A DNA stretch of 64,000 nucleotides from Owenia fusiformis (taxonomy: Eukaryota), in the NCBI GenBank assembly GCA_903813345.2, contig CAIIXF020000001.1, forward strand, positions 7,254,001 to 7,318,000. The letters are read 5' to 3'. Under the pieces are notes generated by a model, which saw only the letters and a program-made list of their open reading frames with translations, was not told the DNA's origin and did no database searches. Made by a program: the position numbers and the translations under genes. Shown one piece after another: positions 1-25,400 of the stretch. Within the stretch, counting starts at the first letter, position 1. The number at the start of each line of letters is the position of its first letter.

Positions 1-145
1 ATTTCAATGTTCATGTAATACACACATGCATTTATTTTAATGTTCATGTAATACACATATGCGTTTATTTCAATGTCCATGTAATAAACACATGCATTTA
101 TTGCAATGTTCATGTTATACACACATGCATTTATTTCAATGTTCA
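1..145. repeat. 33-bp tandem repeat derived from the last ATP13A intron
   Basis: ATTTCAATGTTCATGTAATACACACATGCATTT x4 or more; single copy at ~10991-11025 in the intact gene. Confidence 0.9.
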
Positions 146-847
146 TTTACCATGGGTGTCATTTCAAACTTTGTAAATATGGCACCATTCGGTGAGCTCA
201 CATGATGAAAGACCTAGTAATCTCTCCAAAATGACTCAAAACTGTAATTGAAACCGCCATAAAAAGCAATGTGTTCTTGATCAGGTGATTGGCAGTTTTC
301 ATCTGAACAACTGGAATTGTTGCCAAGTGGATGGAGGACAGACATACAGAAAGATGAGCTAAAAAGTGTCAGTCACATATTAAACACTTAGTTACTCATT
401 CTCTAAAAACAAATTACTTTACTCACCTCAAGGAGGAAGCATATGAAGAAGTTTGCGACTGCAATTCCAGGATCAATCTGAAGGGTATAGAGGGTGGCGG
501 TTGCAGCTCCATGAAGTCTATTATGAATTGCAGGGGGTACACTGTCAACCAGACAGTCACAGCTGTTAGAACTATCAGATTTGCCAGGAACCAGTCTATG
601 TGGAAAAATAAATAAAAAAAGTCAATGCCTTAATTAATATACCTGTAAGCATATATACTATAGGGTGTTCAATAAGTATTGCTTAATTGTTCAAACTTTT
701 GTCCTGTTGGTTGGTTGGTTAACTTTTACATTGTTCTGTCAAAATTTTCAACATTATATTATTTTAGACAAAAGTTTGAGTCCAGCACCAAAGTATACAT
801 ATATGTTTATCTTATGAAATACTAGGGCATATGGTAGGTGATACATT

Positions 848-1036
848 CAGGCCCGTAGCCAGAGGGGGAGCTGGGGAAGCTTCCGCTCCCTCCCCCCCCC
901 TGGCCAGAAATTCTTTCAAAATCATACAGTTTTTCACCATTCTGGGAATTTTTCGCATGATTTTTAGCCAAAATTGTGAAAAAGCCCCCCCCCTGGGAAA
1001 AAGCTCCCCCTGCTGGTAAAAGCTGGCTACGGGCAA
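848..1036. mobile_element. Short GC-rich MITE near the large deletion junction of the duplicate
   Basis: CAGGCCCGTAGCCAG ... CTGGCTACGGGC termini; a related fragment lies at ~51160-51265. Confidence 0.65.
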
Positions 1037-2429
1037 GCATTGCTAGCTACAATGAAATGTGTGAAGTAATTTATCATTATCGATATAATAAATCTCTTGG
1101 TTAAATTGGAACACATCAATCTTGAATCTCATTGTAATTATAAACAAGGCATTAGTCTCTTGCTTCAGTCTGTTCTCCATGACCAGCAGGCCCAGAAATA
1201 TAAGATCATTTTCCATCTGCTCTCTACAAGGAAAACAAAAATATGTTTGCATGTCCATTATTTATCTCAAAAATATAATAAAACTTGATTGCATTATAGT
1301 ATCTCAATTAAAGTTCATTGTTGGTTAATGAGATCAGGAAAACGGAAAAGAGAATGGGTGTCCAAAAGGATGAATTTGGTTTTGAAAGGAATTGACAGAA
1401 CAGGAATAAGAAACTGTAACATTTTCAGTAGAACAGTCCATCGCATGCCTTACCTCTGAGCTCTTTGTACCTTGACCAGGGACATCTTGGGCAATGGTTT
1501 ATAAGCAACAGCTATCACCCTGTAGCCTTGCTGGGTGTATTGCATTAATACATCATGGAAGTCAACAGGAACTGAAAATACAAAATGTATGAACATTGAT
1601 ATTGGTAAAAAATTCTGCAGGTTTATAGATCTATCCTCATGCCTCCAAAGCTGCGTTATTCAAAGAAAATATACCAAGCGATGAATTCAAGAAGTTTTTG
1701 TTACGGAAGAACATGAATTTGCAATAAATCATCTCACCCTGTAATGCCGTCATCGAAGAACAGTTATCAACAAATTTTACATATACAATTTTGTAAGTAC
1801 ATTTTATTTGATTGGCAAACCTTTGTGTTATACTGTACTATATCTTTTGGGGCTAAAATGAGTCAACGAACAATGTTTTCTCAAAAATGTCACATACCTG
1901 TTTCCTGCCTGCATAATGAGGCCACCATCTCTGGGGCACCTTTTGTATAGAGATCAAAGTGTGTGGAGTCCAGTGTACGTGTGATCACTGACATGCGTTG
2001 TAGGCTAGATGAGAAAGTGAAGTGAAGCACTATGCCTATCTCATAAGGTATATTCTGAAATACAATTACATTGATTGGCAGAGATCTTTGAGGTATTTAA
2101 ACTTTATTTACTCTTTGTGTTTCATGTCATTTCAGTTGGTTACCTCTTAATTACAAAAAACTGTGTAGAACTGGATGTAAGCATGGTTAACAGCAACAGG
2201 AGTTTGTGTTACTTTTTCCAAAAGTCCCTTTGTTTAATAAATTCACCCATGTAAGAAATGAAAATTATTCCACATCATTAATTCTAGTAGAATGCAATAT
2301 AAGTGTTAGACTATTGTTCTAATAATGTTTAGAACATAAATAATTTAGAACATTTAACAGTTATAATGAAAAATGTTTTACGTACAATAGTGTGCTATAT
2401 AAACACAAAGCATCTGGGGTTTTACGATC

Positions 2430-3285
2430 ATGTATTTATGCTCATTATTATATCTTTTATTGACATTTTATATCAGTTACATGATACATTAGTCACTAAT
2501 CACTACAAACTACTTCTACAACTATTCTAACTATTCAAAAAATTATTATACAGTGTGATGCACACTACTAAACATATTAAATTTAATTCTGAAACCATGA
2601 TATATAAATTTTCCGATGTGTAATTGAACAGTCAAGTGTTCATTTGCCATTAAACTTTTAAAAATATATGGGTCATCACAATCAAAACTAGGAATAATTT
2701 CTTTTAATTTTGAGTACAAACATTCTCTTAGTATTTCATATTTGTTACATCTTACGAGAAAATATTCTTCATCTTCAATACAATTACATGTTGAACATTT
2801 TCTCTCATTAAGGGGTTTAGGGAAAGGTTTACAATGTCTACCCGTCTCAATATGTAACTGGTGTGAACTTAATCTAAATCTTGCAATACATTGCCTATAC
2901 TTTCTATTATCTAACCTTAAGTATGATTCACATTCAAATTTGGTTTTATATTTACAATACGTTCTGAGTATAGGTGCACACATAATAGCATTTTGCCAGT
3001 CGGCACGATACTGTCTCATCAAAGTGTTATTTACATTTTTTTTAAATATTTGTCCCAGAATTCTAACATGCCACATTTTTCAATTATTTTGAAAACTCTG
3101 GATGCCCATGAGGGAAACCCAAGATTGTGTAACTCAAGCTCATACTTATATGTTTCATATAATATGTTAGTTGGGCATAGTCTCAGGATTCTAATCCAAT
3201 ATTTTATCAATTGTGCTTCAAATTTTATATACAATGGATATAAAATACCTGATGTAAATATTGCTTCAAATAAAATATTCTTATC
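2430..3285 (-). mobile_element. 3' fragment of a CR1/L2-group non-LTR retrotransposon
   Basis: ORF 2546-3076 contains ARFRLSSHQLHIETGRH...ERKCSTCNCIEDEEYFLVRC, the C-terminal Cys/His region of L2/Crack/Daphne-type ORF2, continued by frameshifted ORF 3031-3234. It occupies the place of ATP13A exons 15-16 in the duplicate. Ends approximate. Confidence 0.8.
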
Positions 3286-3980
3286 TTAAGAAGTCTCTAC
3301 ATGAATAATTTAATGGGACAAAATTGATTACTTATGTTTAATCAAAAGTCAAAACAAGGCTTAAGATGCAAAATGTCACCACCTGCCATTTGTTACTGAT
3401 GCCAGTTGCCAAAACCGTCCTCAAAAAAGTTGAAAACCATAATGATATGTTAGCACTTGTGGTGGTGACATAAAAACATTGCAAAATGAGCATCTTGAAT
3501 GGTGAATGTCAAACTTACGTATTGTTGCTTTCTTGACCGTAAGTAGGTACAATTCCCCACATATCAAGGCCATCTTCAGTTAAAGTACCAGACTGAATAC
3601 AGAGACACACAGAAAAATTGTTTCAAACAGTTTTCTCCAAAGCTTAACAGAAATATTGTATTAAAACATCTATAACAAGATGACAGTAATACATTTTACA
3701 GTTTGAATATTACTTAATAAAATATTAATGCAATATTTATTTAATCGTTTGTAATTTCCTCTTTCAATAAATAATAAAGTAATGAAATGATTTTATCTTG
3801 TACAAATTATTGTTTTTCATATGTTTCAGCTGCAAAATGCAGCAAAAAAGTTAAAAAATAAAAGCTAGTAATTATTAAACAGGTACGTGTACTGTATGAT
3901 CTTTTTCAAAACATTTTGGGCAATATTACTATACAACAAAAGAATATTTTAAATTTCAAATTTCATCTCTTTAGTCTAAG

Positions 3981-4964
3981 ATGAAGAGCTGCACAATTTC
4001 ATCAATAATTTTAATGGTTGGACTGATGTTGGTGCCAATGGTATCGATTATGACATACCCAGTGGGTCGTAAGTAACACTAAAAGAATACACAAGTATCT
4101 GTATGATTTATGTGTGATATGTACATAGTACAATTACTATTGTTTATGTTAAAAAATAGGCTTGAAATCTGCTGGATGTGTATATAATAATAATACTGTT
4201 AAGTCATTTGCTGAATCTGGAAACTATTTAAATTCAAAATGTACATTTTTATTGCACATTACTTGTATATACAAACTTGCAAATGGTTACAAAAGTGTGA
4301 CAATTTGTTACGAAAGCAAATCACCACTGCTAAATGCTGGTCTCAAAAAACAAAGGGCAATAAGATACTAATGTTTCCTCTTCTTGGTTGTGGAAAAATT
4401 GGAAAGGCATTTCAATGAACAATATATATACTTCATAAAATTACAAAATACTTTTGAAAGGGGGCCTCAATCAATTTTTTCATTTTGATATTACATGCTA
4501 CTTACAATTACAGTACGTGTATAATGTCATGGGAGGCCATTTTCTTCCATTCATTAAGCTTCACAAACCCATGATTATAGATTAAAAAATTATAAAGTAC
4601 CTTAGAAATAAACTAATAACAAATATATTTGGAGGAGTGCAAAATAATGGCTGGCAGTGAGTAGTTAGAAAACCTAACTACATGTACATTCTAATTTATA
4701 AGAAATATTTTTAACACTGATACGGTTTTATTTAGACCGTGATAACACAACCTTATTTTAAAAGTAAACCTTTGATATAATAAATATTTGACTTCAAAAA
4801 CCCAAAATGGGTATACTATATATATTTTAGCTTGTGAGTCTAATCCCTGCCAGAATGGAGGTTCCTGTGTGCCTTATGATGATGGTACATTCTCATGTGT
4901 GTGCCTATCATCATACAAAGAAAAGCTGTGCCAGACTAAAACATCATTTGTAAACTGTTGCTAA
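3981..4964 (+). CDS. Nested secreted single-EGF-domain peptide, copy B (73 aa), inside the ATP13A duplicate
   Basis: Exon 3981-4068 encodes [29 protein letters not shown] with a phase-1 GTAAGT donor. Exon 4831-4964 encodes (P)[43 protein letters not shown]. Frame open, splice sites intact, all 8 exon-2 cysteines kept. The only indel versus copy A is 9 nt and in frame. Confidence 0.85.
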
Positions 4965-7900
4965 TAAATGGTGAACCAACAACAAATGACTTTCAGAAAC
5001 TTGCACATTTTCTATAAAAAATTTTAAATTGACAATAAATTTCTGAAAGAAGAGTAAACTTCATTTATGTTTTGTCAGACTAAATGCAAACATACCTTTA
5101 TCAAAATGAGAGAGAAATGGTAAAATGCTAAATCTCACCAGAAAGTCAAGATCAGGGAGGCTATTTCAAGAAAATATAAGGATTGCTAAACAGGTGTTTA
5201 TTTTGTAGGTAACTAAATAAAATTAATTGACTTACTTTATCAAAACATACAACATTTATTGAGCCAGTGACATTAATACTACTAGGACTGATACAGTAGA
5301 CCAAGCGGTCCTTTAGTCTGGACTGAGCAAATACGATGCCTATGGTCATGGCAGCTGGCAATGCAGGAGGAACGACAATTGTCACCAAGTCTAGGACACG
5401 CAGTACCACATGACCTGCACTATCTCCACGTTGAACCTGAAGATTAACAAATTAATACAAATATCAATTTTCACGCTCTTTTCATGTTTTCTTACATGAA
5501 ATAGTTACTATTACGGTAATTATTTCGAACTTGATGAGCATGTGTGAAATAAAAATAAGAAACAAATCATATATTTTGTAAACAAGTTCCTAGCAAAGAA
5601 TAATTTTACTTAAAAGTGGTATTCAGTGTAAACTCTCTTATTCTACTATTTTGCAGTTTTGGTTTAGCGTGATTTGTATGATTTATAGCTCTATGTGCTG
5701 TGGTGCTTTCTTTTCAAATGTTGGTGTACTGAAAAGTAAACCAGCTGCCAGAGCTAAATATTTATATCGATAGGGGCCTTAGTTAATGTAAACAACCCTT
5801 GACACAATTACCTGTTCTTATGACAACTGCCTTAACCTTCTCGCTGCCATAGTAACGTGTTTGAATGACCTTAGTGCCACAGAATAGAACATGTCTTGAA
5901 TGTTGCTTTATGTTAAACATCACTTCCTTAATGGTAGATAGCTGAGGGTTTGGCAATGGAGTCTTAGTGACTGGAACACTTTCCCCTATAAACAAATATT
6001 TTACATGAAAAGGAAACTAGAATGACAAATTAATAACTAATTAATAAATAAATATAAACTAGTGGGTAATAATGAAAAGTTTCCCCCATTTCTAAAGCGG
6101 CGATCTTGAAAAAAATTACTCACCAATATACAACTTTGCAAAAATATGAAGCAAATCCATCCACTAGTATTCAATTTATCTTATATTATATCTTATGGAC
6201 AGACAGACTGACTGACTGATGGACAATGGGCTTCACTATATCCCTACCAAACTTTGTTAGTATAATCAAGTGTAAGAGTTATCTTCCGTCAACTGAAAAT
6301 ACATTACCTGTCAACATGCTTTCATTGACAATACAGTTTCCTGTGATGAGAACGGCATCAACCTGCATGACACAGCCCTGGCATGGAATCTCGATGATAT
6401 CACCGGGGACCAATAAATCTGATGGAACATCTGCAAAGTCTGGAATAAGGAAAATATTGACACTATTATTTGGCCATAAACATACAGTGCCATGCAGGAA
6501 AAAGAAGGTCTGAGGTTAAATGAATTTAGTTTTGTGTGGAAAGTGGTGCAACAATACTATGCAACAACTATAGTAGTAAATCCAACAACAAGACAGTGTT
6601 ACAAAGATATTCACAAAATTGTTAAATGCAAACCATAAAATGTTTTTTTCAAGTACAAGTTATAATATCATAGATTTGGGCCTCTTTCAGAAATAAATAT
6701 TAATTCTCCAAATTGATTTACCATTCTTTCCCTGGCATACACCGACAATTTCTTCACTGTGGATGGTCTCCTTCAAAGCTCTCTGCATCTACAAATAATA
6801 ATAATAGCGTAGCTACTACTTTCACAGGTATCTTCACGACAAATGCATTTTTTTAATAACGTCTATATCTCTATCAACATACTTAACACAATAACGCATG
6901 AACTAATGCAACTTATATGTATGGAATAATACCCTCATATAAATATTATCAATACTGGTTACTATACGAATAAAATTGGCATATTTATTGGATAAATAGA
7001 GATTATTTACTGGGAGGAACAGAATATACAATGGTCAACAAAAGGTCAGGCTATGGAAGAAAAACATCATGGATATTGATATCTGCACGAGCCAGCAAGC
7101 CAAGTGCAGGTATCATACCAATTTATAGATAAAAATCATATCACTCAAAATTCATAGGATATACAGCACTCAATGTATCAATTTTGTAAATACAGTGTAC
7201 TGAACATTATAATGAAACATGTGTCCTTACCTCTGTTATTAGAAGTACAAGTTAAGTATAGGTTTAACATGTACACGGATAGAATTAAAACCATAGCTAA
7301 CTCTCCTGAAATATAAACAAACTGTAATAATGACTCCTTTACCTAAAATCATTTGTATAATATGATGTACATAGAGTGTCAAAAACAAGTAAACCAATTT
7401 TTCTATCCCTAAAAGGCTAAATGCTTATTTTTAAGCTATTTATTATAACTAGTAAGTAGTACGATGCTTTCTGACACCAACTTATTGAGACATAGACAAA
7501 TTCCATGTGTTATATAAAATTTAATAATATTCCACTATGACAATTAATTATAAAAGGATGCAACATTATTATATATTAGGGGTAGCAGTATTTACTTATT
7601 AGATCAATACTTTCAAAATGAGAAAGTACAATAGTCAACTTATTAAAGACTTGTACCTCCTGTCTTTATCTTTCTGTGATAAACCCTTTGCCTCATGGAA
7701 GTATGAACATGCATGGTTGCTCTCAAGGCCCCTAAAATGTAAACAACAAAAACGATGAAAGTGAGCGTACATTGAAAAATGTTCAAGAACTCAACAATTT
7801 CTTATTAGGAAAATATGGGAAACAACCTCTCAAAAATTAAAAATGCACTTTAGTCCCTGATCTGGACCCTCTGAAAAAAAGTTTTGTTGTCCAGTACTTT

Positions 7901-10444
7901 CCCACATAAAATGATTGTACCGTTTGAAAGAACAGACTTCCCTCTTAAAGAAAACACCTCTTCTATTGATGTAAACAGGGGCAAAAGGCACCAAAACGGT
8001 CTAAAGTGCAATTAACATAATATATGTGTAATATTTTATTATAAATAAAAACCACATAACAGATGTACTTCAAATGTTCACACATGTTACATGGTAAAAA
8101 GTCCTAGACCTCATTATTTTTTCGGTGACCATCTTGCATTCTGGCAGCCATCTTGGAAGTTTTAAGATAAATCTTGTCATCACGATTTAAATGTTGTCTA
8201 GCCTATCAGATATTTTTAAATGAATGATCGAGTGCCTGAGTACATTTTCTCAGATTTTATTCTGCTCTAATTTTTGAATTTCAAAACAGCTGATTTGTTA
8301 TTCGCTGACTTTTTGTCCTATATTTTTTATGAAACATAGTGTATAAACTGATGTTGTTTTAAACCTTGTTTTATTTTATAACCATTTCTAAAGTACAGTT
8401 AACATAATATATGTGTAATATTTTATTATAAATAATTGTTTTATATTTCTTTCTATTGCATATAATTCCAATTGTAATTTATAGAAATGAATTGAATAAC
8501 ATGTATTTCTTTTATGGACAAAACATATTAACACTGCTACAGTGTACATTACTTCTCATATTAATTATATATAATACTCATAGAATTTTTTTTTAAAAAT
8601 CTGAAATCTGAATAAACAAAAGGAAAAGGAAATATGTGTGGTGCAATTATTATTGTTAAGTGACGGTCACAGTGCTATATTTCAGTATAACAGGCTACTT
8701 CACTGAAGGCTAAATCAGATTCATGGCAGTCATATTTGAGGTAACATAAATGTAAAGTAAGTTATGAAAAGTAATGTTGCCAAAAGTAGTTTCACTGAAA
8801 TAGCATCATGCTATAACCAGCAGACCTCTACACAAAATTCTATAGAATGGGTAAATAATACTTCCCATTCTTAGTGAACACTAATGGAGTAAAGGTAATC
8901 TTTTTTGGCACACCCTGTATGATATTTGCAAAATACTGTATTTTAGCCTGAATAAAACATTACCAGCTAATAATTGTAATTATTTTCACTGTACTATTGT
9001 TTTAGAATACTGTCTAATATGATTTAAGGATTTAAGTACAACAATCTATCAGATGGACATATGCATGAGATTAATTGTAAACATAGTTTTAAACACTCAA
9101 TAGGTCATTAACATTTTTCGAGGGCACAATTACAATTGCAATATATCTACTGAGTATTATACACATACACAAAACAAAACATTGGACTAAAATTCATAAA
9201 TTAATCCACAGCTGGTTTTAATGATTTGAACTACACAAATTCACATACATAAATTAATACAACTGGACAAAATATAGTCAAAATAAGCGTGGCATGGTTT
9301 TTGCTGAAAAAATCTTTTAGCTAAGCTTGAAACTATCTTGGCTGGTGCTAATACCTCCCACTCCAGCTATTATTATATCTTCCATGATTGGCAAGAATAT
9401 GTGGAACAATGTTTCAACATTGTAAGAAATAAAAATCTAACAACAGCAGCCCTACAGCTACTGCTCATTTATTAATATCATCCAAAATGTACAAAAGCAT
9501 GAATAAAATACAAGGCAAAATGGAAGCACAATATATAAATAATGATTCTAATATTTACAATTATTGAGCTAATTGTCTTGGGGACACTGCACATTCAAAT
9601 GTTAAACACTGTGCTGATGTCTCTCAAATATTGAGGACGTGGACACTGGTCTCTCTGTTGGAAAACTAGAGTATAGTATTATAAGAATGAATTCTTTCCT
9701 TTTGTCAAAAGAACATGGATTGGGAACATTAGGGATAAAATGGGAAGCAAATGAATGCATGAGCAGTATCTCAAAGAAAATCAATTTTAAACTTCCACAT
9801 TGTATCCACAGATTAAGAGATACAAGTATGGCTATTAAATACATAGTAATTTAATTTGCATATGCACTATGTAGAACCAACAAAAAGGTCACATGTCTCA
9901 TTTAAAAAAAGCAAAAACATGGAAACTTACTAAACCAAATCTTATCGAACTACATTAGATAAATCTTGATATGACTTTTGTAATGTCAACATTCAAAGAA
10001 AATAACCTAATATGGACTTGTACTGTGATTCTCAGTACATAGCTGGTGAGAAGACAGTGGTCCTTACTTCAAGACCAAGAATGTTATATACTTCCTTTAA
10101 TAAGGTAACAATTTTAAAAAAAAACAGAAAAAATGAGTATCGAAGACTACACAAAATATCAATCCTACAAATTGCACTTTACAAAAACTGTTGTAAAAAG
10201 AAGTCTTCGTACATAAAGATACTCAGCTTATAGACTATAAATATAATATCATAATAAAAAAAAAGTAACCCATGCAACTGACAAATATGAACTCATGTGT
10301 GTGACTCTTAAGAGGCAGCCAATTAAGGGAGATTAACCCTTCATTAACACACAATTGTAAACACTGTAAGAATTCAGGAATTAAGCCTTGTTTATAAGCA
10401 AATATGAAAAAGCCATAAGTTCTTAAGCACCAGTCTCCCTTATG

Positions 10445-13400: not shown

Positions 13401-16400
13401 ATGCCAAAAGATGTCACTAGCGCAGCTCGCCCTTCCCTGAAACACAATGAGCCAAACTTTGCTATTTGCTTGAACTGGTTTCAAATTAAAAGAGTAATTC
13501 AGTATAGTACAATATCTCCGTTCAACAAAAGGAGACATCAAAAGGAGATATCAAAATCCTAAAATAATGAATACATGCATTGGAAGAATTAATTGTATTT
13601 ACAAGATGTATGAAGGTGATCTTACTTGATGACAGCAGGTATACATGTTATGTTAGGTTCCTTAGAGGTGAATGGGGAAGCAACAGAAGCCTCTGCTTCA
13701 GACAGTGACACGCCTGCATGTGCTGTCTTCAAGGCCCCACAATCATTGGCCCCATCCCCACACATCCCTACATAGTACCTGCAATACAATAAAATGTGTA
13801 TGTCAGTGACACGCCTGCATGTGCTGTCTTCAAGGCCCCACAATCATTGGCTCCATCCGCACACATCCCTATTCCCTACATAGTACCTGCAATACAATAC
13901 AATGTGTATATCAGTGACACGCCTGCATGTGCTGTCTTCATCCCCATTTCTCAACCAATCAGAATGTAGCATAGATGATTCTCCATACATGAACGACAGT
14001 GCATTATGCACATCCGGGAATCTGAATTATATTGTGACGTCACATCTGGGGGAAACGGCCACTGTCAAAATTTATATGAGAGAATGACAAGTTAACCAAT
14101 GTTTTCTTTATTTTTTATGTTTGAATCCTTAAATAAAATGACTTACCCAACCTCCTGCAGGGCTTCTACAAGTTGTGATTTCTGTTCTGGTGACATCCTC
14201 GCAAAAACAGTGCCCCGCACAACCAACTTCGGGATTATGTCAGGGTAGTACTGCCGGATCAAGCCCCAGGACTTGCCGGTGATAGCAAAATGGAAGTGTT
14301 CATTCCCCTCTTCTATCTCAAGAGAGTAGGTCTCCTGCAAATTGAAGCATTCATCAAAATCAATGCGATAATTCAAGTTTTGACATTCATGCCCATTTTT
14401 AAAATCAGGTTTTTAGCCAACCATTCTTCTGAATTTCCAATGTTTGTTAAAATGCTTGGTGAAATAATGTACTTTAGGTCATCTCAATTATGAAAGAGCC
14501 TAAAATGATTAAAATACATGTAGTTTTAATACATTAATGCTTCTACAAATAAAATATTCAGGAAGTGCAAATCAACAAATCTGTTCAACATGCAAGTGCA
14601 CGAGCAGGTTGTTCATAAACAAATGTTATCTGGCTTACCATTTGCTTTGTGTGGATCTCTTCCACTTTGGACTTGGTATCCTCAGCATACGTCCATTCTA
14701 TCTGAGCATTTTGTTTCCCAATAGGTGGCACGACAGTTACAAGGATCACTTTATCGTTGGGATCGATCATTTCACAATCTCTTGCTACACTCAGGGCAGT
14801 TAGCATATTGTCACCTGTGAATGGAAATAGATTGTATGCATTAAATAACATGTAAAGTTTAATTAAATATAACTTTTTGATTGGTATTTCATAGTCTACT
14901 TTTCTTAGGTCTAGTAACCTATTTTCTCGAAGTGCATTACGCCGTGTGACCAAATAACACCACAGAAATCACAGATTATATTTAGATACCATAATATGAC
15001 ATAAGAGGTGTGGAATACCTGTAACCATAATAGTTCTGAGATCAGCATCTCGTAGTTGTCTAATGACAGGGCTTGTCTCTTGCTTCAGTCTGTTCTCCAT
15101 GACCAGCAGGCCCAGAAATATAAGATCATTTTCCATCTGCTCTCTACAAGGAGAACAAAAATATGTTTGCATGTCCATTATCTATCTCAACCAGAACAAC
15201 GGCAACTCCAAAGCGTAGCGAATCCCATCGAACAGAAATGGCTGGCATTTTACAAACAAAATATATAGCAAATATCGTAAAATAACACACATAAGAAAGG
15301 CCACCATTTTCAAAATGGTTGCTCACTAGCCAAGTTGTCATCAGAAGAAGAAATATGCTTTTAAGTAGCGACATATAAATTTTTTTAAAAATCACCCACG
15401 TATACATGTAAATGCTGACGATTTTTTAAAATGGCCGCCTACTACCCAAAATGTCATAAGACAGTATGCAATCCTTACGAGTATTCACATATCAAATATA
15501 AACAAAATCGCTCTATTACTTTTTGAATTATAATAAAAAATGTAAAACAAGAACACAAATGTGTACAATATGTCCCCACCAAGTGGTGATCCCGTGAAAT
15601 GGTTATCCTGAAAATGAGTAGACAAGACTTTACCAACACAATTTGAGGACGGAAAATCCAAAGTGGCCACCTTAAAATTTACCCAGAATGCCAAAAATTT
15701 AGTCAGTTCTAGATTTTCATACTAAGAACCACCCCTGAAAATTTGAAATTGATCCGTCACACAGTTAACCAGAAAACATGTAAACAAGACTTTACAGACA
15801 AGATTTCAGGATGGAAAATCCAAAATGGCTGCCTTGACATTTACCCAGAATGTCAAAAAACTAATCTGTTTGTAGATTTTCATACTAAGAATCATCCCTG
15901 AAAATATGAAATTGATCTACCAAACGGTTCACCCGAAAACGGGTAGACAAGACTTTACAGACAAGATTTTAGGACAGAAAATCCAAAATGGCTGCCTTAA
16001 CATTTACACAGAATGCAAAAAAACTAATCAGATGTAGATTTTCATATGAAGAATCATCCCTGAAAATTTGAAATTGATCTATCAAACCGTTCACCTAAGA
16101 ACGCGTAGACAAGACTTTACAGGCAAGATTTTAAGACGGAAAATCCAAAATGGCTGCCTTGACATTTACCCAGAATGCAAAAAAACTAATCAGTTCTAGA
16201 TTTTCATACTAAGAATCATTCCTGAAAATTTGAAATTGATCTACCATACAGTTCACCTGAAAACGAGTAGACAAGACTTTACAGACAAGATTTTAGGACG
16301 GAAAATCCAAAATGGCTGCCTTGACATTTACCCAGAATGCCAAAAAACTAATGAGATCTAGATTTTTATACTAAGAATCATCCCTGAAAATTTGAAATTG

Positions 16401-19400
16401 ATCCACCAAATGGTTCACCTGAAAACGCGCAGACAAGACTTCACAGACAAGATTTTAGGACGGAAAATCCAAAATGGCTGCCTTGGCATTTACCCAGAAT
16501 GCCAAAAAACTAATGAGATCTAGATTTTTATACTAAGAATCATCCCTGAAAATTTGAAATTGATCCACCAAACGGTTCACCTGAAAACGCGCAGACAAGA
16601 CTTCACAGACAAGATTTTAGGACCGAAAAATCCAAAATGGCCGACAATAAAAAAGTCCTTATGAGTTTTTGCTGATTTCTTTTTACAAAATTATCACATA
16701 TAACTACTGTTAACAATAAAGTAGGCTTTTACAACAAAGTGCATCTGAAATTATTTATAAAGCTACTAAATAGTTAAAGTATGAAAACTCAAAAACACCA
16801 TTCAATATGATACAAAGTATTATCGCGCGCTAACTTTTCTTAGGACATTCAAAATGGCTGACACGACTGAGCTAGCAGGTCCAAAACCTAATCAGATCTA
16901 GAATGAAGTGAGCTGAACAAGATGTTAAAGTTTTAAAAGCAACTGTGAAGCAGTTTTTCTTAAAGTTTGCAGACAAGGATTTTAGCATTTGACTTCAAAA
17001 TGGCCGACAGGAAGTAGGTTTCGAGTTAAATTTTTTTCATCCACATCTATAGGCACTCATAAGTTATCCCTGAAAATTTGAAGGTGATATCTGTAGCGGT
17101 TTTGGAGAAAACTCCCGGACGTACGGACGGACAGACAGACGGACGGACAGACGGACGCGCCTAGGCCGACAATATGGCCCCACACTATGTGGTGGGGACA
17201 TAATAACACACATAAAAATGGTGGCCATTTTTCAAAATGGCCCACTACTCCCCAAAGTTTTATTAGTCAATGTGCCATGCTAAAAGTATTCACATATCAA
17301 ATATGAACAAAATCACTCCAATACTTTTGGAGTTATAGCAAAAAATGTAAAAATGATGGCCATTTTTTAAAATCGCCACCTTCTACGCGAAGTGTCATGA
17401 GACAGTGTGCAAGGTTCATAAGTATTCACATATCAAGTCTGAACAAAATCGCTCCACTACTTTTCAAGTTATAGTAAAAAACGTAAAAAATGATGGCCAT
17501 TTTTCAAAATGGACGCCTACTACCCAAAGTGTCATTAGACAGTGTGCCATGCTTATAGTATTCACATATAAAATATGAACAAAATCGCTCTACTACTTTT
17601 TGAGTTATAGTCACGCCCGGTGATCATGAAAATGGGACGGAGGGGGGGAGCAGGCAATTTCCGCTAGAAAATTCAACAAATCTGGTAAAATTATTTTTTC
17701 AAGACAGAGTTTACGATTGAATTGCAAATTGAATAAGCGCACGGTATGATAAAATATGTTAGGTATTCTAGGATTATTTTTCAACCGATACTCTTTTAAG
17801 ATATAAGATCTATTAAAAAAGGCGCAACGCAACCAACGTGCAAAAGTCAAAGTTTTTGCTATAAATCAAGCAACAATGGACTACACGACCTGTAATAAAT
17901 ACTTGTAAGTGATGTTATCATAACTAAATTAATGTCATTGCTGAATTTATAAAATAAGTTTCCATACGTAAAATAAAAAATAATCGAAAATAATTAAAAT
18001 GGGACGGAGGGGGGAGGGGACGGAGGGGGGAGTAATAATTCTATAAAGTGAAACATCTTCACACGAATTCTTGTATTTGAAAAATGAACTCATTAACTTA
18101 GTAAGAAACTGGATGATATACCCCTGGAGACTGAAAAATGGGGACATTTGGAGTAAAAGGACTTAAAGTCGCAAAACATCTCTAATCATGTCTTATATAC
18201 ATATTGCTCCCCCCCTCCCCCCCTCCGTCCCAAATTCATTATTTTCGATTATTTTTTATTTCACATATGGAAACTTATTTTATAAATTCAGCAATGACAT
18301 TAATTTAGTTATGATAACATCACTTACAAGTATTTATTACAGGTCTTCCAGACCATTGTTGCTTGATTTATAGCAAAAACGTTGATTTGTGCCTGTTGAT
18401 GGCCTTGCGCCTTTTTTAATAGATCTCATACCTTAGATGCGTATCGTTTCAGAAAAAATCCCAGAAAACCTAACATATTCTACCATACCGTGCGCCTGTC
18501 CATTTAGCAATTCAATAGTAAACTTTTTCTTGAAAAAATAAATCTCCCAGATTTGTTGAATTTCCTAGCAGAAATTGCCTGCTCCCCCCTCCGTCCCATA
18601 TTCACGATCACCAGGCGTGATAGTAAAGAATGTAAAATAACACACGTAAAAATGATGGCCATTTTGAAAAATGGCCGCCTACTACCCAAAATGTCATTAG
18701 ACATTCGCCCATGCTTAAAGTATTCACATACCAAATATGAACAAAATCGCTCAACTACTTTTTGACTTACAGTAAAAATGTTAAATAACACACGTAAAAA
18801 TGGCGGCCATTTTGAAAAATGGCCGCCTACTCCCAAAAATGTCATTAGACATTGTGTCATGCTTAAAGTATTCACATACCAAATATGAACAAAATCGCTC
18901 CACTATTTTTCAAGTTACAGCAAAAATCGTAAAAAGACGTGCAAAGGCAGCCATTTTTCAAGATGGCTGCCATATATTTCTTCTGTATTTACATTTCTAG
19001 CTTAATCAATGTTCTACTTTTTTACATTTAAAACATAATGCTATTACAGTTTTATATGCAGTACCTAAATAACTGTAAAATCGGCACTAAAATGGCCACC
19101 ATTTTTAAATGAGCGGCCATTTTGAAAATCCGTTTTCGAGCAGAACTTCTACCCCCATTGGGTATATGTGTAAAAAATATGAACAAAATCAAGCCAACGG
19201 TATTTGAGTTATTGCCCGGACGGACGGACGGACGTACGTACGGACGGACAGAGGCGTTCCCTATATCCCTTCCGAACTTCGTTCGATGGGATAAAAATAG
19301 AGTGTAATAAAACTTGATTGCATTATAGATCTCAATTAAAGTTCATTGTTGGCTAATGAGATTAGGAAAACTGATAAGAGAATGGGTGTCCAAAAGGATG

Positions 19401-22400
19401 AATTTGTTTTTAAAAGCCCACTGCATGCTTTACCTCTGAGCTCTTTGTACCTTGACCAGGGACATCTTGGGCAATGGTTTATAAGCAACAGCTATCACCC
19501 TGTAGCCTTGCTGGGTGTATTGCATTAATACATCATGGAAGTCAACAGGAACTGAAAATATAAAATGTATGAACATTGATATTTGTAAAAAATTCTGCAG
19601 GTTTACAGGTCTACTACCCTCATGCTTCCAAAGCTGCGTTATTCAAAGAAAATATACCATGTGATGAATTCAATAAGTCTTTGTTGCAGAAAAAAATGAA
19701 TTTGCTATAAATCATCCCACCCTGTAATGCATTCATCCAAGAACAGAAATCAACAAATTTTACATATACAATTTTGTAAGTACATTAAATTTCATTGGCA
19801 AACCTTTGTAGTATAATACTGTTACATATCTTTTGGGGCTAAAATGAGTCCATGAACAAAGCGTTTTCTCAAAAATGTCACATACCTGTTTCCTGCCTGC
19901 ATAATGAGGCCACCATCTCTGGGGCACCTTTTGTATAGAGATCAAAGTGTGTGGAGCCCAACGTACGCGTGATCACTGACATGCGTTGTAGGCTAGATGA
20001 GAAAGTGAACTGACGCACTATGCCAATCTCATAAGGTATATTCTGAAATACAATTACATTGATTGGCAAAGATCTTTGAGGTACTTCAACTTTATTTCTT
20101 CTTTGTGTTTCATGTCATTTCAGTTGGTTACCTTTTAATTACAAAAAAACTGTTTAGAACTGGATGTAAGCATGGTTAACATGATTTATAGGAGTTTGTG
20201 TTATTATTTCCAAAAGTTTCCCTTTATGCTTTCTCATTGCCAATGGTATTTCTAACATGGATCAAAAAGGATAATGCCTTTTTTTCAATAATTTTACTCA
20301 TGTAGGAAATGAAAATTATTCCAGGTCATTAATTCTAGTAGAATTCAATTCAAGTGTTAGACTAATGTTCTAATAATGTTTTAGAAAATGTTTTATGTAC
20401 AATAGTGTACTGGTGCTATGTTAAGTCCACCCGCTATGGCTCAGTGGCAGAGTCAAGGTTACCAATATCGCTTGGCCCGGGTTCGATTCCCGGTTAAGAC
20501 AAGTTTATTTGTGTGTTATGTAATTCTGGGTGTTTGACTGAGTGGTTCACAACTCGTATAGAAGGCTGTGGTGTGTACCTGTATGTCTGTGTACCTGTGC
20601 ACACAAAAGAACACAGGGCTCCTCCAAGGAGGGGTTTCTGGCTCTATCTTCGAGTGTAAAATACGTAAAATACGGAATATACCAATGAGGTATTGCTCGC
20701 CAAATATGGCGGTAACCAAGATATAATAATAATAATAACCACTGGTATATTCACTTCCTATGTAATGAACCACCACAACTACTTACATCTGGTGAGTCAA
20801 AGCTGGCAGATATTCTCTTGTTGTCAGATGTTTTAGGACGTACGACAGTGGGACTGAAAACATCAAACTTTGAAGCATCCTCACCAGGCTCCTCTAAATC
20901 CTAAAATATATTATTTAAGGGAAATCATAAGACACAGCCAAATTAACTACCCATATAAAAATAATATTTTTGAAATCATATTTTCAGTCAATTTTATGCC
21001 TTTTTATATATCCTACTTAAAATGTTTTTGATTGCATTTTTGATGTGACCTTTTTCATATAATCTAGTGAGCCATGCTTTTTTGAGAACATCATATTCCT
21101 GAACTTATCCTTACCCACTTTGTTGATTCGAACATTTTCAAATCCAAGGGGTCTCCACTTATAACACCCTCTATTATAGTGAGAGAATGGCACGTTGCCA
21201 TAGCAGCAGATAAAGGCCCCTTAGGCAAAAGAGAGGGATCATGCTCTGGAGCTTGGAATCTGAAATACAATATATTCATTTCATCATAAGAAAACAGGTG
21301 GTATTTCATAGCAATCATTGATTAATGAAAACCTCACATTCTATAAACATATTAATCTGAGTAGATGAATTCGAAAACATTGATTATATGCACTGTCTTT
21401 AAGAAGTCTCTACATGAATAATTTAATGGGATTACGTATGTTTAATCCAAGGTCAAAACAAGACATTAACATGCAAAATGTCACCACCTGCCATTTGTTA
21501 CAGATGCCAGTTGCCAACACCGTCCACAAAGACGTTGGAGACCATAACGATATGTTACCACTTGTGGTGGTGACATACCACTTGTGGTGGTGACATACCA
21601 CTTGTGGTGGCGACATAAAAACATTGCAAAATGAGCATCTTGAATGGTGAGTGTTCACATCAGCATGTAGAGTTTGATAATACTCTTCAACATACTCCAT
21701 TGTAATATGTGCATGGTCAAACTTACGTATTGTTGCTTTCTTGACCATAAGTAGGTACAACTCCCCACATATCAAGGCCATCCTCAGTTAAAGTACCAGT
21801 CTGAATACAGAAAAATACAGAATAATTGTTTACCTAAACAGGGATATCATATAAACAAGTACTGTATATGTCTTTAATTACATGGTGTGTTTAATTATGC
21901 GTATTTCGCGCTAGACAATTATCACTGAAATATAAATATGAATATTAAAACCTCTCCATAAAAATCGAGGAATGACCAAGTTTAACAAAACAAAAGTAAT
22001 ACATTTTACAGTTTGAATAAACCTAATAAATCATTAATACAGTATTTTATTGTTTGCAATTTCCTTTTTCAATAAATGATGAAGTAATGAAACGATTTTA
22101 TCTTAAATAATCATTGTTTTTCATGTTTCAACTACTGAAAAAGACAGCAAAAAAAATTCAAATATAAATCTGGTAATAATTGAACAGGTACGTCTGCTAC
22201 ATGATCATTTTAAACCATTTTAGGAACTTTTATTCTATAACAGAACATCATACAAATTCTAATTTTAAACTTCATCTTTTAAGTCTAAGATGAACAGCTG
22301 CACAATTTCATCAATAATTTTAATGGTTGGACTGATGTTTGTGTTTGAAATGCCAATGGTAACAATGATTCCATGCCCAGTGGACCGTAAGTAACATTAT

Positions 22401-25400
22401 AAAAGGACATCTATATGATTTTTGTGTGATATATACATAGTACTATTGTTCATGTTCCAAAAATTAGCCTTGGAATCTGCTGGATTTGTATATAATATTA
22501 CTGTTAATTCATTTGCTGGATACTATTTAAATTCCAAATGTACAGTTTTATTGCACATTACACACCACTTGCAAATTGTTACAAAAACTGTAACAATTTG
22601 TTAGAAAAGCCAACCACCACTGCTGAATGCTGGTCTCAAAAAATGAAGGGCAATAAGATATCAACATCTCCTCTTGGAATTGGAAAGGCATTTCAATGAA
22701 CAACAAGGCATTAACATGACAAAATGTCACCACCTAAAACAATTTGGTCAATTTAAAGCAAGTTGGAAAATACCTTTTGACCTTAAGAAGAACTTCTGAG
22801 AACATGTAGATGATTTTGAAAAAAAATTAGTCAATTTGAAGCAAGTTGAAAAAAGACCTTTTTGACCTTGAGAAGGTCATTGAAGGTCAAAGGTCAAATC
22901 TAAAGTCAGATTTGAACTTCTGAGAACTTGTAAAGTCAAATTTGAACTTCTGAAAAGATGTAGATGATTTTGAAAAAAAAATTTGGTCAATTTGAAGCAA
23001 GTTGAAAACAGACCTTTTTGACCTTTTTTGACCTTGAGAAGGTCATTAAAGGTCAAACGTCAAATTAAAAGTCAGATTTGAATTTCTGAGAACATGTAGA
23101 TGATTTTGAAAAAAAAAATTAGTCAATTTGAAGCAAGTTGAAAAAAGACCTTTTTGACCTTTTTTGACCTTGAGAAGGTCAAATGTCAAATCTAAAGTCA
23201 AATCTAAATTTGAATTTCTGAGAACATGTAGATGATTTTGAAAAAAAATTTAGTCAATTTGAAGCAAGATGAAAAAATACCTTTTTGACATTTTTTGACA
23301 TTGAGAAGGTCATTGAAGGTCAAATGTCAAATCTAAAGTCAGATTTGAATTTCTGAGAACATGTAGATGATTTTGAAAAAAAAATTTAGTCAATTTGAAG
23401 CAAGTTGAAAAAAGACCTTTTTGACCTTTTTTGACTTTTGAGAAGGTCAAATGTCAAATCTTAAGTCAAATCTAAAGTCAGATTTGAATTTCTGAGAACA
23501 TGTAGATGATTTTGAAAAAAAATTTAGTCAATTTGAAGCAAGTTGAAAAAAGACCTTTTTGACCTTTTTTGACTTTGAGAAGGTCATTGAAGGTCAAATG
23601 TCAAATCTTAAGTCAAATCTAAAGTCAGATTTGAATTTCTGAGAACACGTAGATGATTTTGAAAATTTTTTTTAGTCAATTTGAAGCAAGTAGAAAACAG
23701 ACCTTTTTGACCTTTTTTGACCTTGAGAAGGTCAGATTTGAAGGTCAAATGTCAAATCTTAAGTCAGATTTGAATTTCTGAGAACACGTAGATGATTTTG
23801 AAAAAAAATTTAGTCAATTTGAAGCAAGTTGAAAACAGACCTTTTTGACCTTTTTTGACCTTGAGAAGGTCATTGAAGGTCAAATGTCAAATCTAAAGTC
23901 AGATTTGAAGGTCAAATGTCAAATCTAAAGTCAGATTTGAATTTCTGAGAACATGTAGATGATTTTGAAAAAAAATTTAGTCAATGTGAAGCAAGTTGAA
24001 AAAAGACCTTTTTGACCTTGAGAAGGTCAGATTTGAAGGTCAAATGTCAAATCTAAAGTCAGATTTGAATTTCTGAGAACATGTAGATGATTTTGAAAAA
24101 AATTTAGTCAATGTGAAGCAAGTTGAAAAAAGACCTTTTTGACCTTGAGAAGGTCATTGAAGGTCAAATGTCAAATCTAAAGTCAGATTTGAACTTCTGA
24201 GAAGATCTAGATGATTTAGAAAAAAATTGAAGTCAGTCTAAACAGTATTTGTTAAGTTATAGGAAGTTGTAAGAAATTGTTACAGACGCCGGACGCCGGA
24301 CGCCAACCACCAACCGCCGTCGCAAAAAAACGGAGACCATAACAATATGTCACCACTTTTTGGTGGTGACATAATATATACTTCACAAAATTACGAAATA
24401 CTTTTGAAAGTTGGCTTCTATCGTTTTTTTTATTTGGTATTGCATACTACATACAATTACATGTACATGTATAGTGTGAGGTTAGATGAGTTTATTCCAT
24501 TCATAAGCTTCACAAACCCATGATTATAAATTACAATTTGATTTGAGGTTAGATGAGTTTATAAAGATGAGTTTGTAAATAACAATATAATTTGAGGTAA
24601 GATGAGTTTATAAATGACAATATGATTTGAGGTTAGATGAGTTTATAAATGACAATATGATTTGAGGTTAGATGAATTTTATAAATAACAATATGATATG
24701 AGGTTAGATGAGTTTATAAATGACAAAAAAAAACATGATTATAAATTGCAATTTAATTTGGTTTTAGATGAGTTTATAAAGATAAGTTTGTAAATAACAA
24801 TATGATTTGAGGTTAGATGAGTTTATAAATAACAATATGATTTGAGGTTAGAAGAGTTTATAAATGACAATATGATTAGAGGTTAGATGAGTTTATAAAT
24901 GACAATATGATTTGAGGTTAGATAAGTTTATAAATAACAATATGATTTGAGGTTAGATGAGATTATAAATGACAATATGATTTGAGGTTAGATGAATTTA
25001 TAAATGATAATATGATTTGAGGTTAGATGAGTTTATAAATGACAATATGACTTGAAGTTTATAAATGACAATATGATTTGAGGTTAGATGGATTTATAAA
25101 TGACAATATGATTTGAGGTTAGATGAGTTTATAAGTGACAATATGATTTGAGGTTAGATGAGTTTATAAATGACAATATGATTTGAGGTTAGATGAGATT
25201 ATAAATGACAATATGATTTGAGGTTAGATGAGTTTATAAATGACACTATGATTTGAGGTTAGATGAGTTTATAAATGACAATATGATTTGAGGTTAGATG
25301 AGTTTATAAATGACAAATACCGAAGAAATATCAAGGGCAAGTGTTTATAGAAGATATATAACATAAAACATACAAGAACACAAATGTGTACAAAATGTCC

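Follow-up and report, generated by a model that had tools for sequence, protein, structure and literature searches.

The window analysed here is a stretch of 64,000 nucleotides (nt) of AT-rich animal DNA from Owenia fusiformis. It contains two copies of a small gene that encodes a peptide with a hydrophobic leader and a single EGF domain, and the copies lie within two tandem copies of an ATPase gene. The copy upstream in the window was named B and the other was named A. Both genes consist of three exons, namely a non-coding 5' exon, a leader exon and an EGF exon. No third copy of the EGF gene was found in the 64-kb window.

In copy B, which is on the plus strand, the non-coding 5' exon (3820-3882) has a firm 3' end, with the donor AACAG/GTACGT common to copy A, and an approximate 5' end. 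It is followed, after an intron of 92 nt, by the leader exon (3975-4068), in which the ATG at 3981 opens 88 coding nt (3981-4068) for a hydrophobic, signal-like leader. The mean Kyte-Doolittle hydropathy of residues 5-19 of this leader is 2.19. An intron of 762 nt (4069-4830; GTAAGT..TTTTAG) separates the leader exon from the EGF exon (4831-4964; 134 nt, phase 1), which encodes 43 residues and then a TAA stop. The 3' untranslated region (UTR; 4965-5039) carries a conserved AATAAA at 5034-5039, and an RNA contig extends to 5033. Copy A, on the same strand, has a non-coding 5' exon at 22124-22187 (5' end approximate), a leader exon at 22284-22386 with its ATG at 22290 and 97 coding nt (22290-22386), an intron of 4872 nt (22387-27258; GTAAGT...TTTTAG) and an EGF exon at 27259-27392 (134 nt), again of 43 residues and a stop. 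The precursors are 73 (B) and 76 (A) amino acids long. The intron of copy A is swollen by satellite arrays at 22790-24228, 24565-25316 and 25421-26449, whose periods are 128-286 nt, 35 nt (in 21.6 copies) and 162 nt. A second occurrence of the 162-nt array, together with the sequence around it, is found at 15547-17206 (92% identity), where satellite sequence was recorded at 15607-16641.

The start codons given here agree with those of the earlier note on this DNA, which was made from the letters alone. Copy B has a stop in the same frame 9 codons ahead of its ATG, and in copy A there is no in-frame ATG from the nearest upstream stop to 22290. These facts support a three-exon gene that begins at 3981 and 22290. 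Copy A corresponds to the last 76 residues of the 100-residue protein P0117, which is NCBI CAH1772706.1 ("unnamed protein product, partial", Owenia fusiformis), the only member of its cluster. The spliced product of our model of copy A agrees with P0117 letter for letter, including the C-terminus encoded by the EGF exon. The first 24 residues of P0117, its N-terminal "partial" part, are a read-through of the non-coding 5' exon ending at 22187.

The host of the EGF gene is a P5-type (ATP13A-like) ATPase gene on the minus strand. It was recognized by a match to PF12409 (60.6 bits at 36295-36570) and by a match to the E1-E2 ATPase family (39 bits at 30884-31159; cut-off 28.1); two further open reading frames match below the cut-off. 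In the B segment, the ATPase exons 3519-3591 (A counterpart 21727-21799) and 5236-5437 (202 nt; A counterpart 27626-27827) lie on the minus strand and border the host intron. The latter exon is also covered by contig pieces, and its translation matches the E1-E2 ATPase family with 20.5 bits (E 0.00036), below the cut-off of 28.1. Since the sequencing runs X2, X4 and X6 contain the RNA joint 3591->5236, the EGF peptide gene is located antisense in the intron between these two exons.

A colinear chain of BLAST matches connects the B segment (102-7851) with the A segment (10983-33457), and the two EGF genes arose by a tandem segmental duplication that copied the host and the nested gene together. 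When the B region (1-10440) was compared with the A region (10445-36570), only 7 of the 19 coding chunks of the A-copy ATPase were matched in the B region, and at least 11 of the 18 internal chunks have been lost there. The ATPase gene that surrounds B has thus been reduced to a degenerate fragment. The ATPase exons that survive in the B region are 97-99% identical to those of A.

We then asked what the contigs tell about the expression of copy B. None of the sequencing runs listed is on record as RNA; their RNA status is our guess, backed by the spliced ATPase contigs in X2, X4 and X6. The run X3 showed no spliced ATPase joint, but its depth is present in just 11 of 30 bins. Where single runs left portions of copy B uncovered, no evidence was drawn from these gaps. 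A contig of X3 (record 15, 245 letters) covers 4831-5033 with 0 differences from copy B and starts exactly at the predicted acceptor. The remaining 42 letters of this contig were assigned to the bin 3993-4069, and the depth of X3 is zero in between. Since the X3 contig gives depth on both sides and none between them, this depth arithmetic implies a spliced B message with the joint 4068/4831. In addition, X2 contains an unspliced B-type contig (3894-4142) with 1 difference. The earlier note had named an untranscribed copy B as an outcome that would refute its reading; the B-specific contig at 4831-5033, with depths that imply splicing, indicates that it is transcribed.

The coding parts of the two genes contain no frameshifts, while approximately 4.5 would be expected from the local indel density (P 0.011). 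When neutral change was simulated at the local rate, the start, the stop, the open frame and the 8 cysteines were kept with a probability of 0.004. All 8 cysteines of the EGF exon, the TAA stop and the GT..AG splice sites are kept in both gene models, as the earlier note had claimed, and 0 of the 24 nt of the cysteine codons differ. The beginning of the leader is also conserved. Its first 48 nt (16 codons) differ at one position, in agreement with the earlier count, and its first 51 nt contain 2 differences (p 0.001 against the local rate). Both EGF genes are thus intact and constrained, and appear functional.

The remaining parts of the precursors differ considerably. Over the whole leader exon there are 10 mismatches in 88 aligned nt and an in-frame indel of 9 nt, and the later portion of this exon has diverged to the same extent as the mature part. 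In the EGF exon, 22 of 134 nt and 17 of 44 codons differ; 15 residues are changed among the 43, and two codons (10 and 27) differ only synonymously. Our recount agrees with the numbers given in the earlier note, and so does the location of the changes in the last EGF loop and the tail: 12 of the 15 residue changes are found in codons 22-44, including the loop PFGGKQ (A) versus SYKEKL (B) and the tail KLVAT (A) versus TSFVN (B). Copy A has a ninth cysteine, encoded at 22374-22376 (IPCPVDPCE) just ahead of the EGF domain, where copy B has a tyrosine. The presence of this cysteine in the mature peptide would depend on the signal cleavage site.

The earlier note had interpreted this pattern as positive selection and rapid neofunctionalisation after the duplication, and had proposed a dN/dS analysis with the introns as the neutral rate. 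The analysis was carried out pairwise, with replacement and silent changes counted by the Nei-Gojobori method (NG86). The EGF exon contains 19 replacement changes per 103.7 sites and 3 silent changes per 28.3 sites, giving proportions of differing sites of 0.183 (pN, replacement) and 0.106 (pS, silent) and corrected values of 0.210 (dN) and 0.114 (dS). The resulting ratio omega was 1.84, with a Fisher p of 0.41. A pairwise codon likelihood method gave an omega of 2.2-2.5, and the likelihood-ratio test against omega = 1 gave p 0.18-0.26. For the C-terminal half, which was chosen after looking at the data, omega was 4.3 (p 0.12). Thus, omega is not significantly higher than 1, and dN is approximately equal to the non-coding divergence.

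The neutral rate itself depends on the alignment. The gene's own intron differs at 0.122 of positions in the BLAST pieces and at 0.15-0.24 over three blocks in the global alignment; in the BLAST pieces the upstream region differs at 0.185 and the 3' region at 0.139. When all non-coding sequence of the host intron was combined, the divergence was 0.141 (168/1192) from the BLAST pieces and 0.200 (258/1289) from the global alignment. The pN of 0.183 falls within this local range (Fisher p 0.80 against the global-alignment figure); it is 3 times the flank rate (p 1.6e-5). Replacement divergence therefore essentially does not exceed the intronic divergence, an outcome that the earlier note had named as refuting its proposal. 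From the proposal, the intact paralogs with a conserved leader, conserved cysteines and a diverged mature part stand, and a significant excess of replacements does not. Positive selection is neither shown nor excluded by these tests. With two sequences alone, diversifying selection and relaxed constraint on the non-cysteine residues are indistinguishable.

The rapid evolution of the EGF exon had been inferred in the earlier note from a contrast with the adjacent ATPase exon, which was said to differ at 3 of 201 nt. We found the 3 differences, in an exon of 202 nt (5236-5437), which the earlier note had called "exon 13". At the three sites (5272, 5359 and 5374), the contigs have the A letters in X2 and the B letters in X4 and X6, and the X4 and X6 contigs retain the A letter at 3553 in the adjoining ATPase exon. 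Since A and B letters are mixed among the runs, the three differences are shared polymorphisms or products of gene conversion. The exon is a constrained, probably converted coding exon of a conserved pump, and for this reason cannot serve as a neutral yardstick. The contrast with this exon is therefore misleading.

The divergence between the two segments is not uniform. With exons masked, a block of approximately 1.9 kb (3592-5513) differs at 0.143 of non-exonic positions (185/1296), whereas the flanks (102-3591 and 5514-7851) differ at 0.064 (205/3202); a closely related comparison of the block with the flanks gave a Fisher p of 6e-45. In 200-nt windows along the duplication, the divergence ranges from 0.015 to 0.195. 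The maxima are located at the promoter and 5' UTR (3748-3952; 0.195) and at 5110-5625 (0.175), while the sequence beside the EGF exon (4718-5109) shows just 0.10. There are two readings of this block. Either gene conversion homogenised the flanks, and it is the block that reveals how old the copies really are, or the block has another origin. Since selection on a protein cannot raise the divergence of a neutral intron, the block needs another cause as well. According to PMC3924837, a highly diverged block in sequences undergoing gene conversion can be a sign of selection that keeps the copies different. The divergence block is, in our view, the best remaining argument for selection.

The contigs also contain variants that are not present in the window. 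In X4 and X6, the A-like contigs have the A letters at all six exon positions listed, yet they are not identical to copy A of the window. Inside a GATGAT repeat, at 4876, they have an in-frame deletion of 3 nt; over 3576-4089 and 3819-4034 they contain roughly half of the differences of A from B; and they lack the 24-nt gap over 5007-5159. These contigs may represent another allele, a mosaic or a third copy.

The type of the EGF domain was examined on both copies. Pfam EGF (PF00008) matches A with 34.6 bits and B with 35.5 bits (cut-off 21.5). The cysteine spacing is C-x4-C-x5-C-x9-C-x-C-x8-C in both, with the core NPCQNGGSC, and beyond the EGF domain a tail of 8 residues is followed by Cys-Cys. 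Copy A has an aromatic residue at -5 and a glycine at -3 before the sixth cysteine, C6 (F..G..C). The motif directly before C6 is GKQC in A and EKLC in B. The counts of Lys+Arg and Asp+Glu are 4 and 3 in A and 3 and 4 in B, respectively, which gives net charges of +1 for A and -1 for B. A net charge near zero argues against the role of a cationic antimicrobial peptide. The string CQNGGSC, found in both copies, fits the consensus for O-fucose, and CESNPC, found in B only, fits the consensus for O-glucose. In the PDB, a profile of the domain had 45 matches at E <= 0.001. The best of them were EGF repeats of Notch1 (E 3e-20, a chain of five repeats), and none of the 45 was named as a growth factor of the EGF/TGF-alpha type.

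A profile of the two EGF parts was also compared with 1.84 billion protein representatives and gave 3366 matches at E <= 0.001. The best 150 of the 3366 were multi-EGF proteins, apart from P0117, which is copy A; single-domain relatives may lie below these best 150. Two of the multi-EGF matches, P0027 and P0053, align over all 43 profile positions, including the tail. This fact suggests that the Cys-Cys tail derives from the linker and the first cysteine of a following repeat, so the origin of the gene may have been a multi-EGF gene that became truncated. Word-based protein searches with the EGF part of B gave no candidate of 34-109 amino acids, and with P0117 gave itself alone among proteins of 55-175 amino acids; among longer proteins they gave one fish crumbs-like protein with 38% identity. 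No family member usable for codon analysis came from these searches. The ESM Atlas yielded generic EGF clusters alone, with a best score of 0.88, which is below the level we take as more than a lead. In the literature, none of the 15 papers listed, out of 21 on Owenia fusiformis and EGF, treated this gene by title or abstract, and a search for single-EGF secreted peptides under selection returned nothing specific.

The interpretation that we favour, and consider reasonably but not strongly probable, is that A and B are tandem paralogs, both of them intact and expressed, and that they represent a lineage-restricted gene whose product is a small secreted EGF peptide with a constrained scaffold and with mature residues that change in a near-neutral manner. 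The host ATPase gene and the nested peptide gene would have been copied together, the downstream ATPase copy would have decayed, and the nested gene would have survived. The hydrophobic leader would direct the peptide to the secretory path, and the six EGF cysteines would form the usual three disulfides. Pairing within the EGF fold is not possible for the two terminal cysteines, which would therefore probably form an unusual vicinal bond or a link between two chains. The folded knot would act extracellularly as a binding module, possibly dimerised through its Cys-Cys tail. Leader, cysteines, frame and splice sites would be retained by selection. For residues that lie between cysteines, and most of all for those of the loop between C5 and C6 and of the tail, the rate of change would be approximately the neutral rate of the region, with omega about 1 to 2. 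The contrast to the near-identical ATPase exon would then exist because that exon is constrained and probably converted, and not because the peptide exon is unusually fast.

It is worth noting that several facts weigh against this interpretation. The point estimates of omega are higher than 1. The 3' half of the EGF exon contains 18 differences in 69 nt, which is above the lower estimates of the neutral rate: in a scan test for a 69-nt cluster, P was 0.01 for a local rate of 0.122 and 0.04 for 0.143, and rose to 0.18 for 0.173 and 0.42 for 0.200. The EGF gene lies in a block that is 2.2 times more diverged than its flanks. The RNA support for copy B consists of one contig of low depth (3.1-3.3), and its splice comes from depth arithmetic. 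Copy B keeps the tyrosine before C6 but has a glutamate in place of the glycine at -3, a residue present in 9 of 9 Notch1 domains compared. AlphaFold2, run for A on the alignment of the two rows, gave a mean predicted local distance difference test score of 54.9, too low for the model to be of use, with three short strands only. Secretion, the disulfide pattern, glycosylation and the binding partner are all inferred from sequence.

Some of these facts could be explained by another hypothesis, in which diversifying selection after the duplication drove apart the C5-C6 loop and the tail as a binding surface, and selection resisted gene conversion around the gene to leave an island of divergence. 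The omega estimates, up to 4.3 in the C-terminal half, the concentration of 12 of the 15 residue changes in codons 22-44, and the cluster of 18 differences in 69 nt, if the local rate is 0.122-0.143, would all agree with this hypothesis. So would the raised non-exonic divergence of 3592-5513 with a pN 3 times the flank rate, the "peak of divergence" given as a signature of selection in PMC3924837, and the further variants in RNA contigs of other samples, including the in-frame deletion at 4876. However, no test for omega > 1 was significant (p 0.41, 0.18-0.26 and 0.12), and pN is not above the divergence of non-coding DNA in the gene itself. Divergence in the island is highest over the promoter and 5' UTR and over 5110-5625 and lower beside the EGF exon, selection on the protein does not raise intron divergence, and charges of +1 and -1 are unlike those of a cationic antimicrobial peptide. 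We regard diversifying selection as possible but doubtful. A broader version of it is a little more doubtful still: selection that opposes gene conversion would preserve the island, the reason being that the two peptides bind different targets; the genes would belong to a polymorphic, fast-evolving annelid family of peptides with a single Notch-type EGF domain and a Cys-Cys tail, with further alleles or copies that include the codon deletion; and the nested gene, alone under selection, would have outlived its host.

Near-neutral change of the mature residues would also be found if copy B were a functionless duplicate that decays and drifts beside its degenerate host gene. No annotated protein found corresponds to copy B (there was no candidate of 34-109 amino acids), the RNA depth over B is low, B no longer has the near-invariant glycine before C6, the surrounding ATPase copy has lost at least 11 of 18 internal chunks, and dN is near the local neutral rate. 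Against decay, the frame, start, stop, intron boundaries and all 8 cysteines of B are intact (joint probability 0.004), no frameshift is found where about 4.5 are expected, the beginning of the leader is conserved, a B-specific RNA contig has depths that imply splicing, and the Pfam EGF score of B is not below that of A. Decay of copy B is thus very unlikely. It is even less likely that the two genes are older paralogs or diverged alleles that came to lie side by side by ectopic conversion from a third copy or by haplotype mis-assembly, so that their divergence predates the duplication. The 2.2-fold higher divergence of the block 3592-5513 and the A-like contigs of X4 and X6, which are neither A nor B of the window and hint at further copies or mosaics, would fit such an origin. 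The block is, however, colinear in the two segments, which agree in exon-intron structure and in the ATPase exons that flank it, and the 64-kb window contains no third copy. Since many ATPase exons are absent from the segment of copy B, and since its insertions are other than those of A, B is not an allele of A; the missing host exons were also the reason for rejecting haplotype mis-assembly as the source of both copies. Two intact and expressed paralogs with near-neutral mature residues therefore remain our preferred interpretation.

Some other features of the window were observed. A short interspersed repeat at approximately 3330-3480 reaches a word depth of up to 423,670 in the RNA contigs, with many different junctions, and is a very abundant transcribed element. 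The loose contig ends beside it consist of ACACC-rich simple sequence. On the minus strand, an open frame of 460 amino acids at 52475-53854 is rich in serine and in aspartate and asparagine, has no Pfam match, and could be one large exon belonging to an unrelated gene. Another minus-strand open frame, of 177 amino acids at 2546-3079, also has no Pfam match; it lies in a stretch of the B segment that is absent from A and probably represents a mobile element that inserted there.

At present, the locus is mostly of methodological value. The peptide exon had been compared with a constrained, probably converted exon; measured against its own intron, the peptide changes in an approximately neutral manner. 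On a small scale, the locus also illustrates clearly how a nested gene can remain intact and expressed during the decay of its duplicated host. Owenia belongs to an annelid lineage that is used as a developmental model. If diversifying selection were true, the Notch-type EGF knot would join the scaffolds used for fast-evolving secreted effectors in animals. To our knowledge, the scaffold of a single Notch-type EGF domain with a Cys-Cys tail has not been described as a hypervariable effector.

Among known systems, the closest in sequence are the EGF repeats of the Notch/Delta type (hEGF, PF00008). The cysteine spacing and the NPCQNGGSC core are the same, and both the aromatic residue at -5 and the glycine at -3 are retained in copy A. 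An EGF domain encoded by a single phase-1 exon, as here, is common for repeats in Notch/Delta-type proteins. Unlike those repeats, which belong to large membrane or matrix proteins, the domain described here stands alone behind a leader in a precursor of 73-76 amino acids, has an additional tail of 8 residues with Cys-Cys, and in copy B has glutamate for the conserved glycine. Ligands of the EGF receptor, such as L-EGF, have the spacing C-x7-C-x4-5-C-x10-13-C-x-C-x8-C and G-x-R before C6. The peptides of Owenia differ from this type (EGF, TGF-alpha, L-EGF, gigantoxin I) in their first three cysteine gaps of 4, 5 and 9 residues and in GKQC or EKLC before C6. Adhesion by the mussel foot protein PVFP-5 depends on many tyrosines converted to 3,4-dihydroxyphenylalanine (DOPA). 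PVFP-5 (PDB 7qab) is, like the present peptides, a small secreted EGF-motif protein of a marine invertebrate, and it matched the profile with E 1.6e-9, which we take as a lead only; it has two EGF motifs, whereas the present peptides have one and contain two tyrosines each. L-EGF of Lymnaea and gigantoxin I of a sea anemone (PMC10985097) are small secreted single-EGF peptides without a membrane anchor, as the Owenia peptides appear to be.

For the mosaic divergence, the genes for the red and the green opsin in humans (PMC3924837) offer a parallel: in both cases tandem duplicates show low divergence over most of their length and high divergence in a limited block that contains a candidate target. 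The block described here differs in that it spans a whole nested gene, including its promoter and intron, and its maxima are not over the variable exon. A further difference is that conversion is deduced here from the mosaic divergence and from the variants shared among RNA contigs. With regard to the peptides themselves, the conotoxins and the mussel MgCRP-I peptides (PMC4558851) differ from the present case, in which two copies are seen, omega is not significantly above 1, the late part of the leader is diverged, and the scaffold is an EGF domain. What they have in common with the Owenia pair is a conserved leader, invariant cysteines and a mature part that has diverged strongly between tandem paralogs.

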